A stretch of 64,000 bases of DNA from a plasmid. Shown piece after piece: positions 6,001-12,000 of this stretch (positions are counted from its first letter, which is position 1; the number at the start of each line of letters is the position of its first letter). The stretch is from the NCBI RefSeq assembly GCF_988243305.1, contig NZ_OZ547137.1; one strand, 5' to 3'. The position numbers are program-made.

Positions 6001-9000
6001 GCAAAGAAAATACTTTGGCGTTATTCTCCACATTTTCAAATGATTGGGCATGCGCAAAAGTAAAAACACTTAATGCTATAGCTATTGTTGAAACTATTCT
6101 TCGAATCTTCATCGCTATCACTTGGACTTGAACTTGAACTTGAACTTGAACTTGAACTTGAACTTGAACTTGATTATATAAAGACTCAAATCATATAACG
6201 CTAAAAAAATAGCAATATTTAACATATTTCAATCTTCTAACACTAGGATTCCGCCCCCATTTTCTCCAAAAATTACACTTTTCGCATAAAGATAATTATT
6301 TATCATGTTATTAGCTAGGCCGTCCCGGAAATCCTGGAAACTAAACGCCCTGAAAGAGGTAAATAGGATGACGAAAAATACACGTTTTCCCCCGAAGTCC
6401 GTTAAGGGGATGTGGACGATTTCCTGAACCACGGCAGCCTGGAGGCTGCAAATCGGGGTGTGGCAGAATATGAGCTTTCAGAGTAACCATCCAGAATGAG
6501 TTCCCATGTCACACAACCTGAAGCACCAGAATGGTGAAAGAGGTTCTGAAAGCCGTCGCCAGAGCCAATAATCCCCCTTATCAGTCCGTATTTGCAGACT
6601 TTATCGCCGGTCATCCCTCCTGCACGGTCTGTTTCTGGGAAACCTTCCACAAAATGTACCCGGATTCACCGTACGAATACGTCACGTTCTGCCATACCTG
6701 CCGTCGTTTTGTATTTATACGAAACAGAAGCGGAGATGAAGGCGGATGACCCGAAGTGGTGGTGATTTTCAGCCTCGTCCGCTGAAATGCTGGCTGACCG
6801 AAGACGAAATCAGGGCCGTTCTTGATGCGGTGCGCGATGCAGTATGCAGTGTCAGTTGCCGGGTGGCAGAAGATGGGGGTTCGCGCCCATTTACTCCCAA
6901 AGTCTCACCTTGCTTATGTAATTAATTGAATTTATTTAGAAAACGTTGCAATTTTAGCATCATTTTTTATTGTTCTTTTTAACCTGAAGTACGTCGATCG
7001 AGAGATACCTGTTTTTTCTGTCACACTGCCCAGAGATTCTCCCTGTGATATAAGCTCCAACGCTGTAGGCGTTCGTGGATGCTTCTTCCTGCCAAATTTT
7101 ACGCCTGCGGCAAGTGCCGCTATTCTTCCGCCGTTTGTCCGCTCCAGAATACGCTCACGTTCCGCTTCAGCTACAGCAGCAAGGATTTGGATAACCATTT
7201 TGCCCATTGTCCCTTCTGTACTGAGACCGTTCTCCAGGAACCGGATGGCGATCCCCTTTTTGTAACAGCTATCAACCACACGGATCATGTCAGCAGTGTT
7301 ACGCCCCAGTCGGTCCATTTTTGTACAGATGATTACGTCGTCTTTCTCTGCACGGGCCAACAACCGCTGTAGTCCTTCCCGTTCATCAGTTGCGCCAGTC
7401 ATAATATCCGTAAAAATACGATCTTCCCGTACCCCGGCATTTTTTAGCTCCGAGATTTGATGTGCTAAGAGAGAGACTTTTGGAGGAAATGGGCGCAGAA
7501 CCCCATAATGGTGCGCCGCAGAGAGCCTGCTCACTGATACCATGCACAGCGGCGGCCTGCGCCCCGATGGCGACCGTGGGCTTCAGTCTGGTTTCAAATA
7601 CCACCTGACCGGACGCATCGGTCAGGCCGTTGTTTGCCGATCGTTGCCAGGCCGGTTTTCCTTCGCCTGCCACTGATTATGCTGAGCAGGAACTGGATCT
7701 GAACAGCTATTGCATCAGCAGACCTGCAGCCACCTTCTTTCTGCGCGCCAGCGGTAAATCGATGAACCAGGCTGGCGTGCAGAATGGTGATCTGCTGGTA
7801 GTGGACAGGGCCGAAAAACCACAACACGGGGACATCGTTATCGCTGAGATCGACGGTGAGTTCACCGTCAAACGACTGCTGTTGCGCCCACGCCCGGCAC
7901 TGGAGCTGGTTTCAGACAGCCCGGAGTTCCGCACACTGTATCCGGAAAACATCTGTATTTTTGGTGTTGTCACTCACGTGATACACAGGACGCGGGAGTT
8001 ACGCTGATGTTTGCACTGGCTGATATCAACAGTTTCTACGCCTCATGTGAAAAAGTTTTCCGCCCGGACCTTCGCAACGAACCGGTCATCGTACTCAGCA
8101 ATAACGATGGCTGTGTGATCGCGCGCAGCCCGGAGGCAAAAGCCCTTGGCATCAGAATGGGGCAGCCCTGGTTTCAGGTGAGACAAACGCGCCTGGAGAA
8201 GAAAATACATGTATTTTCCAGCAATTATGCGCTATACCACAGCATGAGCCAACGGGTTATGGCTGTTCTGGAGTCGCTTTCTCCCGCAGTTGAGCCCTAC
8301 TCAATTGATGAAATGTTCATTGATTTGCGGGGGATAAATCATTGCATCTCTCCGGAGTTTTTTGGTCATCAGCTCAGGGAACAGGTAAAGAGCTGGACAG
8401 GACTCACCATGGGGGTGGGCATTGCGCCTACAAAAACGCTGGCTAAAAGTGCACAGTGGGCAACAAAGCAATGGCCACAGTTTTCCGGTGTGGTCGCGCT
8501 GACGGCAGAAAACCGTAATCGGATCTTGAAGCTACTGGGGCTGCAGCCAGTTGGTGAGGTCTGGGGAGTAGGACGCAGACTGACGGAAAAGCTGAATGCG
8601 CTGGGTATTAACACAGCACTGCAGCTGGCGCAGGCGAACACGGCATTCATCCGGAAAAACTTCAGCGTCATTCTTGAGCGTACGGTACGCGAACTCAACG
8701 GCGAGTCCTGCATATCCCTGGAAGAAGCACCACCGGCAAAACAGCAGATTGTCTGTAGTCGCAGTTTTGGTGAACGAATCACAGACAAAGATGCCATGCA
8801 CCAGGCTGTTGTTCAGTATGCTGAGCGGGCCGCAGAGAAACTACGTGGGGAGCGTCAGTATTGCCGCCGCATGCAGAGCCTTAAACCATGTCTGGCGTGA
8901 AGGGTACCGCTATATGAAGGCAGGAGTCATGCTGGCTGATTTCACACCATCGGGTATAGCGCAGCCGGGATTATTTGATGAAATCCAGCCCCGTAAAAAC

Positions 9001-12000
9001 AGTGAAAAGTTAATGAAAACACTCGATGAACTGAACCAGTCGGGAAAAGGGAAAGTGTGGTTTGCGGGGCGAGGAACCGCCCCTGAATGGCAAATGAAAC
9101 AGGAAATGCTATCGCCTTCGTATACAACACAATAGACTGAGATCCCCATTGCTTCATTCTGATATATCAGAATAATTTTTTCATTTTAAGACGCACATCA
9201 TTCATTGCCTCCTGCACCGAATCAGTAGCAGAAGGAGGCATTTTTTCAGCAGATTGCGAAGCACCGAGTTCAGTCAACACAGCTCTGATATCGGCCTGAG
9301 AAGGCTTCCATCCAGTCGTCTGACTGAGTAAGGTTACAACCTGATCTGCTGAAAACTCCTCGCTCAAAATGGCAGTCAGCAATACAGGCAGGCGAGGATC
9401 AAGTTGGTGTAACGCCATTCCAGAAATAAATGCATTCCGGAACAGCTCACCACGCTCAGAACGCGGAACGGACTCTATCGCTTCCAAAGTTTGAAAGTCT
9501 GCAGCTTTTTCCGGATGCAGATAAAGTGTGTATTTTTTCCTTTTCCGTTCATCGTCCACAATATTACTCCTCTTTGAAAGCCGCGATAGCTTCAACCAGT
9601 GCTGTCTGTGGCGACTCCATCATCACTACTTTTTGCCCAAGATGGTGCCATGCCGTTTTTATCGAATCATAGATCAACGGGGCCCCACCACCGACAACAT
9701 AAACACGATTCACATGATGGAAATCACCGAGCTCATTGACTACTTGCTCCCCCAAACTGGCAATAGCCCCCTCAATGGTATTAAGGACCAGATCAGTTTT
9801 TGTTTCGTCATTTATAACCTGCCGAACAAAGTCCGGGTCATTACGACGTTTAATCAATTCATCTGCAACGAGGAAACTGGTATCACTGGATGCCATGCGC
9901 AATGCACTCATTGCAGCTTTCGTAACTGAAGACACACCAATGCCAGAATTACCATGAATGGCACTTACAGAGTCAAATTGACCAACGATAACACCAACAT
10001 CAAGCGTAGTGCCGCCAATATCAACTACCAGCGATTTTTCGAACTGACCAACTTTATCCACGACCAGACGAGAAAACACAGCTGGCAATGATTCAGGCAT
10101 CACATCAACGTGTTCAATGGTGAAAACATCGCCTTTATTAAGACGAATCGGCCTCATTAAATTCTCAATTTTACGCTGAATGTTGAGTTCATTTTTTTGA
10201 CACTCTTTCGTATAGAACTCACTGATAGGCAAAGTCACAGTCAATGATACAGGCTGAGGCGCTAATCCACTATTCAGTAAAGCGTGATGCACAGCTAACA
10301 GGTTAACATCCGTATATTGATACTCAATATGAGTCGTAAGAATAGATTGGTTGCTAACTTCATCATACGTGTATTTTTTACCATCCAGTTCATAGTTAAA
10401 TGTCTGGCGAATTCCTAACCCGTCAACCTTCCATCCATGACGAAATGAGTTTTGCGACAACGACTTACAGATTTCCCCATTATCATTCCATGCCAACTTG
10501 ATTGTTGTTGAACCATCATCGCAGTATACGTTCATCTATAGCCCCTTAAATACTCAATCTGAGTAAATCATTGTTTCTGGTTGCAAGGTAATACTCAATT
10601 TGAGCACCATCATAGTTATGAAATCACAAAACACAAGTATTATTTATTACATCACATGACACACTTCATATTTCATACTTCATAAATATGAACATATATT
10701 GACACCTCAGGTTACCGTGTCAAAATATCATCATACTTCACACATCACATTTATGAGGTTGCAATGATTACTGTAGTTGGTGGGAACAAAGGTGGTTCAG
10801 GGAAAACTACCATTGCATCAAACCTGGCTATTGCTCTCGCAAATAAAGGAAGGGAAGTCTGCCTGTTAAACGGAGATCTACAACGAACAGCCGCAAAACA
10901 TCATGCGGAACGAGAAGCTGCAGGACTGTTACCAGCAATAACCCTTGTTGAGAAATTTGATAACCTGACACAAACACTACAGGCTCTGAATGAAAAGTTC
11001 GATGATGTAATAGTGGATGTCGCAGGAAGAAACTCAAAGGAATTCATAACGAGTGGAGTTGTCGCACATCAAATAATTGCGCCACTACAGTGTTCTCAAC
11101 CAGATCTGGATACTCTTACAGAACTAGAACAACAGATAGACGCAATGCGTAACCTTAACCCGGAACTTAAGGTTTATTGTTTACAAAGTATGGCAACAAC
11201 CAATCCGGTTTTGAGGGGAAATGAGAGAAAAGAATTCCTTGAATATCTTGAAGAATTCCCAACAATTCAAGTCCTTGATTCAGTTATTTGTTTCAGAAAA
11301 GTCTATCGCGATTGCATGAGCAACGGCACCGGTGTAGTAGAAACGAACAATACAGCAGCCAAAGCAGAAATTGAACATTTAATGAATGAGGTATTTGGCC
11401 CATGGTGAAGAAACCCAGCCAGCAAGCATTAAACAGAGCTGCAGTTACGGTAGAACAAGCAGAGGCTCTGGCTCAGCGCCTTGCGGATAAACCATACGGC
11501 GCGCCGGAAAAACCCGAACCAGAAAAACAATGTCGGACGACAATCTCTCTTGGTGAAAGCATGCTTGTCACAATAGAAGATCTGGCATTGAGGAATAAAC
11601 GCAATGGTAAAGATCCAAAAAATGTAAGTGCCATCGTCAGAGTAGCCCTTGAGCAATACTTAAAAACACTAACGTAATAATCAATAAGTTATTACTTATG
11701 AAATCACACTTGTGAATTCATACTGTTTAAGCACCCTTGCATACAAGAGATCACATATTGCAGTGGTCTCTTTTTTTACAGAATAAATCACAATTCATAA
11801 TTATGATTTATGAATTATGCGTGTCTGTTTTTCAGCATTGTGACCGCATCGGACTCAGGCATCGAAAACTGCACCCGGTGCCGTGCAGCCACATCCAGCG
11901 CAAACACCTTCGTGTAGACCTCCGTTGAGCTGATGGACTTATGCCCCATTAGGCTCTGCAGGACCTTCAGTGGTATACCGGCATACAGCATGTGCATCGC

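Follow-up and report, generated by a model that had tools for sequence, protein, structure and literature searches.

The locus lies in a 64,000-nt stretch of a plasmid contig (the window), and its features are collected in Table 1. Two adjoining plus-strand genes whose ORFs match Peptidase_S24/UmuD and IMS/UmuC profiles of Pfam and NCBIfam are preceded by the remnant of a resolvase gene and a piece of an exonuclease gene. The plasmid is an IncF plasmid of the pAA type, encoding AAF/I, of enteroaggregative E. coli (EAEC). Since the region is 99.5–99.9% identical to thousands of plasmid copies, with 3954 matching plasmid records, its match to imp/umuDC-type genes is far beyond chance.

As references we used NZ_CP117007.1 (L001), which carries an intact operon, and NZ_OY754359.1 (L008), which encodes a 423-aa ImpB. 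Identity to L001 is 99.5% over 7627-8866 and 99.9% over 8856-9700. Descent is indicated both by this near-identity to intact impAB copies and by the flanking stbB-parM module, which they have in common with the window. The intact operon of L001 consists of a dinI-like gene (impC, 82 aa), a 145-aa umuD (impA) and a 414-aa umuC. In an intact operon ImpC is the DinI-like protein, ImpA the UmuD-like self-cleaving subunit and ImpB the UmuC-like translesion polymerase of the Y family. Because the DinI-like protein of L001 falls into the UniRef cluster named ImpC (IMPC_ECOLX), sequence comparison assigns the operon to the three-gene impCAB type and not to umuDC proper. On the same kind of evidence, positions 7627-9162 are identified as what remains, on this EAEC virulence plasmid, of a plasmid-borne impCAB operon, which is related to umuDC. 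The original prediction of a decayed umuDC-like operon was essentially right when judged by alignment with the intact copies, with the family amended to impCAB. An Rfam search of 5900-11000 returned no match, so that no RNA element explains the region.

Table 1. Features of the imp locus and its upstream neighbours (positions in the window)
Feature	Position	Strand	Remarks
Inverted repeat, left arm, 34 nt	6873..6906		flanks resolvase remnant; 85% complementary; GGGG-rich
Serine recombinase (resolvase), 5'-truncated	6932..7467	-	DNA homology to intact E. albertii copy (L009) stops at 7467
Inverted repeat, right arm, 34 nt	7473..7506		abuts exonuclease fragment
3'-5' exonuclease gene, internal 127-bp fragment (IncF-plasmid)	7503..7629	-	97.6% to L004 4000-4126
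Terminator-like hairpin, 9-bp stem	7604..7626	+	directly upstream of junction; covers weak AGG before TTG at 7630
In-frame TGA closing the frame upstream of impA remnant	7606..7608	+	sequence reading
'impA remnant (umuD-like), codons 20-145 + stop	7627..8007	+	Peptidase_S24 and UmuD profiles; annotated umuD
impB 5' part, codons 1-287	8007..8866	+	IMS catalytic core, HHH motif, little-finger positions 1-45
Deletion junction, sole surviving copy of 8-bp direct repeat TATTGCCG	8859..8866	+	116 bp lost
Ten out-of-frame codons (RMQSLKPCLA) + premature TGA	8867..8900	+	ends 297-aa product
impB 3' part, ImpB codons ~324-414, other frame	8859..9135	+	includes DUF4113 C-terminal domain
Nonsense W415* (TGG>TAG, G>A at 9134)	9133..9135	+	L008 has TGG, 423-aa product
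Former last eight impB codons (TEIPIASF) + ancestral TGA stop at 9160-9162	9136..9162	+	comparison with L008

Truncation of impA and its upstream neighbours

The first lesion is found at 7626/7627. Homology to L001 starts at 7627, that is at impA codon 20 and at about residue 15-16 of UmuD. The promoter, both LexA boxes, impC and impA codons 1-19 are gone and the 127-bp exonuclease fragment is in their place. On an intact plasmid the exonuclease gene is located downstream of repA-yacAB; in pAA-09EL50 the same fragment is annotated by RefSeq as a partial pseudogene. The junction is an illegitimate one. The resolvase gene is a remnant without the N-terminal MALLGYARVSTSHQK segment that holds the catalytic Ser motif, and the Pfam Resolvase match begins at profile position 16; its ORF is listed up to 7543 with a non-homologous N-terminus. 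The 34-nt inverted repeat around it looks like a terminal repeat of the Tn3 family.

The intact operon of L001 has two LexA-type boxes of the form CTG-N10-CAG, CTGTATATGTATACAG and the weaker CTGTGTGTGGATTCAG, which answers the proposal to look for a LexA box in related plasmids. The DinI-like impC is present in L001, L005, L008, L014 and L015 and absent from the window. Between 6000 and 8100 we found no credible LexA box, the only CTG-N10-CAG strings there having poor centres, and no promoter-like site was detected on the plus strand in 7000-9400, which is weak negative evidence as the scan counts did not exceed those of shuffles. Because this simple scan found neither consensus promoter nor LexA sites, we infer that the locus is silent.

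The remnant retains the S24 peptidase domain and an Ala-Gly self-cleavage site (7651-7656) aligned to Cys24-Gly25 of UmuD. Compared with a complete UmuD-like subunit, the domain and the position of the cleavage site are kept, whereas the arm codons 1-19 and the native start are gone. PGAP annotates the remaining frame as a 125-aa umuD from a TTG at 7630. The UmuD-like frame runs to 8007. The in-frame TGA and the missing SOS box had been noticed correctly in the original prediction, as had the 5' truncation itself; the frame is, however, not 12 but 19 codons short when measured against the ImpA family length of 145 aa.

Deletion, frameshift and nonsense change in impB

The ATG of impB overlaps the impA stop (TGATG). 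The UmuC-like ORF 8007-8900 ends with ...RGERQYCRRMQSLKPCLA*, and from the same nucleotides ...IAAACRALNHVWREGYRYMKAGVML is read in the frame of ORF 8596-9135. UmuC profile NF002955 is accordingly split between the two frames, the first covering positions 1-289 and the second 323-414, in agreement with the earlier observation that umuC homology resumes on the same nucleotides in another frame; IMS_C matches only profile positions 1-45 of 109. Comparison with the intact gene locates a second lesion (Δ116), the loss of exactly 116 bp between two 8-bp direct repeats TATTGCCG. The repeats are exact over 8 bp, extend to 11 bp with one mismatch and are spaced by exactly 116 bp in the intact gene, and window positions 8856-8866 align to both L001 4230-4240 and 4346-4356. 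Because 116 bp correspond to 38 2/3 codons, the frame shifts after codon 287 and the 297-aa product consists of 287 native residues and 10 aberrant ones. When the 116 bp are put back, a single frame is open as far as W415*. A deletion at a short repeat with a change of frame had been predicted and is found, but neither its size of about 45 codons nor the repeat tattgccgc was correct. The segment was probably lost by replication slippage or by a microhomology-mediated deletion. A naturally shorter homolog in a single frame was considered and rejected on the alignment with L001 and L008 and on the 3458 plasmid records that keep the segment.

Among PDB chains none that is UmuC-like comes closer than Pol IV, and when aligned to it the deleted residues fall on strands of its little finger. 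Judging from this alignment, they would form part of the little finger at the start of the domain. The third lesion, W415*, sits 9 codons before the natural impB stop and was overlooked by the original prediction. The resulting 414-aa allele, which L001 also has, is common (680 contigs) and, where a plasmid is free of the other lesions, may be active. As for a polymerase, the catalytic core (IMS, HHH) is intact in the window, but the little finger is broken, DUF4113 is in another frame and W415* is present.

Two overlapping frames that both carry homology could also result from an assembly or sequencing error, or belong to a naturally split polymerase or one made by programmed frameshifting, and nothing beyond the two frames speaks for this. 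The identical junction is found in two plasmids that were finished independently, the one from wastewater in the UK, the other from a clinical isolate in Sweden, as well as in genome and gut-metagenome assemblies (NCBI, ENA, JGI, Logan), and an artefact was rejected on these independent records. Frameshifting was likewise rejected: it could not restore ImpB because the DNA itself lacks 116 bp that encode little-finger residues. We regard the probability of either as negligible.

Distribution of the lesions and origin of the doubly damaged copy

In other EAEC plasmids the lesions are also found separately. The 5' junction occurs in 22 plasmid records, W415* in 16, and the Δ116 junction in 2, as well as in 1 of 5426 E. 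coli genomes from RefSeq; ~200 contigs carry the 297-aa ORF in exactly this form. They are inherited lineage markers, and the original view of a recent inactivation is right only insofar as divergence is low. The pAA of O104:H4 (e.g. NC_018654.1) has a junction of resolvase, exonuclease fragment and 'impA identical to that of the window. Its impB, in which the 116 bp are retained, is instead frameshifted by the loss of 1 bp from a C run and has a divergent 3' end. In pE1246_1 (NZ_CP025574.1) the Δ116 junction and W415* are identical to the window, whereas impC-impA are intact. Both sets of lesions are combined in the window, in CP056358.1 and in several draft and metagenome contigs. Among the copies compared, Δ116 accompanies intact impC-impA in L005, L014 and L015 and a truncated 'impA in the window, L002, L010-L013 and L016-L018. 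In the RefSeq annotation of pE1246_1 and pAA-09EL50, umuC is a 'frameshifted' pseudogene, and that of the O104:H4 pAA is flagged likewise. The locus is an ordinary pseudogene, already flagged by public annotation; a literature search on impB in EAEC found no paper discussing the relic.

A switch of SNP haplotype is located between 7897 and 8182, and site 7895 and Δ116 occur together in each of the four possible combinations. Because the lesions occur separately elsewhere and the haplotype switches in this interval, the doubly damaged copy is probably a recombinant and not the product of one recent event, although the left side offers few informative sites (7756, 7895, 7897) and the same pattern could be produced if the deletion recurred at the 8-bp repeats. 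Homologous recombination within the imp genes, with a crossover between 7898 and 8181, would have built the present copy. The left arm, bringing the 5' truncation, would be of the O104:H4-pAA type, and the right arm, bringing Δ116 and W415*, of the pE1246_1/55989-plasmid type.

Alternatively, lineages with truncated and with intact impA acquired Δ116 in separate events at the same pair of 8-bp repeats, so that a slippage hotspot would replace recombination between plasmids. Exact repeats 116 bp apart do make the deletion repeatable, and the left haplotype comprises three SNPs only, of which two, 7895 C and 7897 G, are shared with the distant L008 and may be ancestral. Against this, the right haplotype of Δ116 copies is identical in both contexts at twelve sites (8182 to 9134, among them 8636 G and W415*), except for a synonymous change at 8234 private to the window. 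The right-hand Δ116 haplotype also differs from the O104:H4 pAA at 11 sites; even then the right arm of the truncated lineage would have to be exchanged by recombination, and Δ116 is very rare, with 2 records against 3458. A hotspot is unlikely on these grounds. A further alternative concerns 'impA. None of the copies examined shows an interruption of its frame, which PGAP takes for a normal umuD of 125 aa, and a small probability is therefore left for a residual role. The truncated gene, most of whose inhibitory arm is gone, could have been kept as a useful UmuD'-like protein acting with chromosomal UmuC or other SOS partners, with impB free to decay meanwhile. This agrees with a 125-aa frame that is intact wherever the 5' junction occurs (exact sequence on 403 contigs, junction in 22 plasmid records), with impB lesions that differ between lineages, and with a complete S24 domain in an ORF whose start lies only 8 residues ahead of the position aligned to the first residue of UmuD'. 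But no plus-strand promoter-like site lies upstream and both LexA boxes are lost, and the TTG start has an AGG at 3-nt spacing buried in the 9-bp hairpin. The lineage-specific changes, E63K beside the catalytic Ser and P113L, are all non-synonymous, which fits relaxed constraint better than selection, and a 378-nt frame at ~99% identity is expected to stay open by chance over such a short time. We therefore consider retention of 'impA for such a function very improbable. It is equally improbable that the ORF is expressed in EAEC as a constitutively 'pre-activated' UmuD'-like factor working with chromosomal UmuC or other SOS proteins; if it were, this could explain the open 'impA frame as opposed to the lineage-varied decay of impB.

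Taken as a whole, a non-functional impCAB relic with three lesions, probably joined by recombination, is very likely the best explanation. The relic would be neither transcribed from an SOS promoter nor able to provide a working polymerase, and should therefore add nothing to UV survival or SOS mutagenesis. This EAEC virulence-plasmid family appears to have lost its plasmid-borne error-prone polymerase, so that the plasmid should not contribute to SOS mutagenesis; the importance for general biology is little. As markers of lineage the 5' junction, Δ116 and W415* are clean, and together they point to a recombination joint between pAA backbones of the AAF/I and the AAF/III type. A weakness of annotation also became apparent: since the NCBIfam model does not extend upstream of the cleavage site, PGAP gives the truncated 125-aa ORF the name of an intact 'umuD'. 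The 414-aa W415* allele is listed as an intact UmuC.

Comparison with known imp and umuDC systems

As in Pol V, the activation of the imp polymerase follows cleavage of the small subunit stimulated by RecA*. Chromosomal umuDC (Pol V), mucAB and samAB likewise combine a UmuD-like S24 self-cleaving subunit (8gmt_B, E = 1.9e-34) with a UmuC-like Y-family polymerase (NF002955, 781 bits for the intact allele). They consist, however, of two genes without a dinI-like first gene, and the window sequence belongs to the imp lineage. For plasmid pTF2 two LexA boxes like those of L001 and SOS induction of ImpCAB have been reported (PMC12211044); in both pTF2 and L001 the boxes lie upstream of impC. As cited in the same source, impCAB is located on TP110 and on the virulence plasmid of Shigella flexneri (Lodwick et al. 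1990; Runyen-Janecky et al. 1999). The intact relatives of the window have the gene order of these operons in common and encode near-identical proteins (impC 82 aa and impA 145 aa in L001, impB 423 aa in L008), and start and stop codons of adjacent genes overlap in both. In contrast to TP110 and Shigella impCAB, the window copy is without LexA boxes, impC and impA codons 1-19, and its impB carries the frameshifting 116-bp deletion as well as W415*.

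Three lesions in a plasmid impCAB operon

Alignment to plasmid p140_MLI109 (L001, NZ_CP117007.1), which carries an undamaged operon with the same stbB-parM module downstream, directly displays the anatomy of the imp relic and its three lesions. Since the DinI-like protein of L001 falls in the cluster named ImpC (IMPC_ECOLX), the operon is impCAB. The original prediction of a truncated umuD followed by a umuC with a deletion and frame change is supported overall, with corrected sizes, and the peptide strings it quoted were found in the ORFs.

Identity with L001 starts at 7627, corresponding to impA codon 20. 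The predicted 5’ truncation of umuD is therefore real, but comprises 19 impA codons instead of 12. The promoter and impC are also gone, and of the LexA boxes proposed for checking in related plasmids, two are present upstream of the intact operon and both are lost from the relic. Scanning 7000-9400 on the + strand revealed no promoter-like site. The UmuD-like frame with its upstream stop is present as described and matches both Peptidase_S24 (E = 8e-26), with a complete S24 domain, and UmuD model NF007621. UmuD’ begins at Gly25 of UmuD, and the residue aligned to it lies 8 residues into this ORF. NF007621 has only 115 positions and begins near the cleavage site, so the loss of the N-terminal arm escapes PGAP annotation: the 125-aa product is listed as an ordinary ‘umuD’ (WP_000457137.1), and the same ORF occurs in CP056358.1 and NC_018654.1.

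Features of the imp relic, its upstream region and the intact reference operon
Feature	Position	Strand	Description
34-nt inverted repeat	6873-6906 and 7473-7506		arms 85% complementary, GGGG-rich ends
Exonuclease fragment	7503-7629	-	127-bp internal piece of IncF 3’-5’ exonuclease gene; 97.6% to exonuclease reference L004
Hairpin	7604-7626		9-bp GC-rich stem, then T-containing tract; directly before TTG
’impA (5’-truncated impA) ORF	7630-8007		TTG start; in-frame TGA at 7606-7608
impB ORF, 5’ part	8007-8900		IMS catalytic domain, HHH motif, first 45 of 109 positions of little-finger domain IMS_C; UmuC model NF002955 positions 1-289
impB ORF, 3’ part	8596-9135		other frame; NF002955 positions 323-414, DUF4113
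LexA-type boxes	L001		two: CTGTATATGTATACAG and a weaker one
dinI-like gene	L001		82 aa
umuD	L001		145 aa; start overlaps stop of dinI-like gene
umuC	L001		414 aa

Upstream of ’impA, the exonuclease fragment abuts the right arm of the inverted repeat. The serine recombinase (resolvase) gene between the arms has lost 15 codons at its 5’ end, and with them the catalytic-serine motif; an intact homolog from E. albertii starts MALLGYARVSTSHQK. Repeats and resolvase together look like what is left of a small Tn3-family element that had inserted in the plasmid’s 3’-5’ exonuclease gene. The hairpin sits within the exonuclease fragment exactly at the ’impA junction, where it may have promoted an illegitimate join or may merely block read-through. 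The junction probably arose by illegitimate recombination in which the two partners overlapped by 3 bp (CCG). Its exact 40-nt sequence was found in 22 plasmid records, mainly pAA plasmids of O104:H4.

Deletion and nonsense change in impB

UmuC homology is split across two frames, as had been predicted. Window 8856-8866 aligns to both L001 4230-4240 and L001 4346-4356, since the intact gene contains the direct repeats CAGTATTGCCG and CATTATTGCCG, whose starts are exactly 116 bp apart. One copy is left in the window, with the exact microhomology TATTGCCG at 8859-8866. A repeat-flanked deletion was thus correctly recognized, although neither the size of about 45 codons nor the repeat tattgccgc was right. 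The 116 bp lost (Δ116) equal 38 2/3 codons and therefore shift the frame, giving a predicted product of 287 native and 10 aberrant residues that ends at the stop 8898-8900; reinserting them regains one continuous frame. Slippage or a microhomology-mediated deletion would account for this loss. By alignment, the deleted residues (QVTTFVRTSPFAVKEP...) correspond to the strands at the start of the Pol IV little finger, and Y-family polymerases require this domain for DNA binding.

Searches for the 40-nt Δ116 junction matched no more than 2 plasmid records, CP056358.1 and pE1246_1, and a single genome among the 5426 complete E. coli genomes in RefSeq, while 3458 plasmid records retain the lost segment. 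The exact 297-aa ORF was detected in about 200 contigs (NCBI, ENA, JGI, Logan), human gut metagenomes among them; the allele is real and circulating.

The stop at 9133-9135, where the originally described interval ends, had not been recognized as a nonsense change: full-length impB genes have TGG (W415) instead of TAG and continue for eight more codons (TEIPIASF) to the ancestral stop, TGA at 9160-9162. W415* removes 9 residues from ImpB. It is shared by L001 (position 4623-4625), pE1246_1, the EAEC 55989 plasmid and 13 other plasmid records (n=16), and the resulting 414-aa alleles are annotated by PGAP as intact UmuC.

Plasmid background and origin of the combination

Directly upstream of the relic are aggD and aggC, the chaperone and usher genes of AAF/I fimbriae, and the relic’s surroundings are 99.9% identical over 1.9-2.8 kb to pRHBSTW-00670_2 (CP056358.1; E. 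coli, IncFIA/FIB/FII). Judged by these sequence matches, the window belongs to a pAA-type virulence plasmid of enteroaggregative E. coli (EAEC). Sequence similar to 7400-9300 was found in about 3950 plasmid records, chiefly from Escherichia, Salmonella and Shigella. At 6120-6173, at or immediately upstream of the start of the aggD-like chaperone ORF (5354-6121), the hexanucleotide ACTTGA is repeated nine times in tandem, apparently without mismatch; the copy number could vary and alter fimbrial expression.

All lesions are combined in the window, CP056358.1 and seven more contigs. The pAA plasmids of the O104:H4 outbreak lineage (such as L003, NC_018654.1) have the identical 5’ truncation, but keep the 116 bp. 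Their impB has instead lost 1 bp from a C5 run opposite window 8858/8859, within the segment missing from the window, and this umuC is listed in RefSeq as ‘frameshifted; internal stop’. Their 3’ end diverges from window 9107 on, with a different stbB/parM module alongside. Conversely, impC-impA is intact in the AAF/III plasmid pE1246_1 and two draft assemblies, and is followed there by an impB with Δ116 and W415*. SNP typing assigned the window and like copies to the O104:H4-pAA haplotype at 7756, 7895 and 7897, and to the pE1246_1 haplotype from 8182 to 9134, where 11 sites differ from O104:H4 pAA. All four combinations of site 7895 with Δ116 were found. This pattern would most simply be explained by homologous recombination with the crossover somewhere in 7898-8181, joining a left arm of AAF/I type to a right arm of 55989/pE1246 type. 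Repeated deletion at the same direct repeats could likewise bring Δ116 behind the truncated impA, but is the weaker explanation because the right-arm haplotype would have to be replaced anyway. With the crossover as the preferred reading, the lesions mark a recombination joint linking two EAEC plasmid backbones, which makes them mildly useful.

Functional status and comparison with known imp operons

A working imp operon requires LexA-controlled transcription, cleavable ImpA and complete ImpB. Since LexA-controlled transcription signals and complete ImpB are both absent, the locus should add nothing to translesion synthesis, and the relic is predicted to be silent in transcription and translation. 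We consider it highly improbable that the truncated ’impA has a UmuD’-like role of its own. PGAP naming of the 125-aa and 414-aa products as intact is a mildly useful annotation point. In RefSeq, these umuC alleles are already entered as pseudogenes with a frameshift, and the piece of exonuclease gene carries the label partial.

The relic is an ordinary pseudogene, derived from an operon family that is well known. The impCAB operons described in TP110 and the Shigella virulence plasmid are of the same type as that of L001. According to a report on the plasmid pTF2, it has these two LexA boxes as well, and its ImpC, ImpA and ImpB are SOS-induced (PMC12211044).
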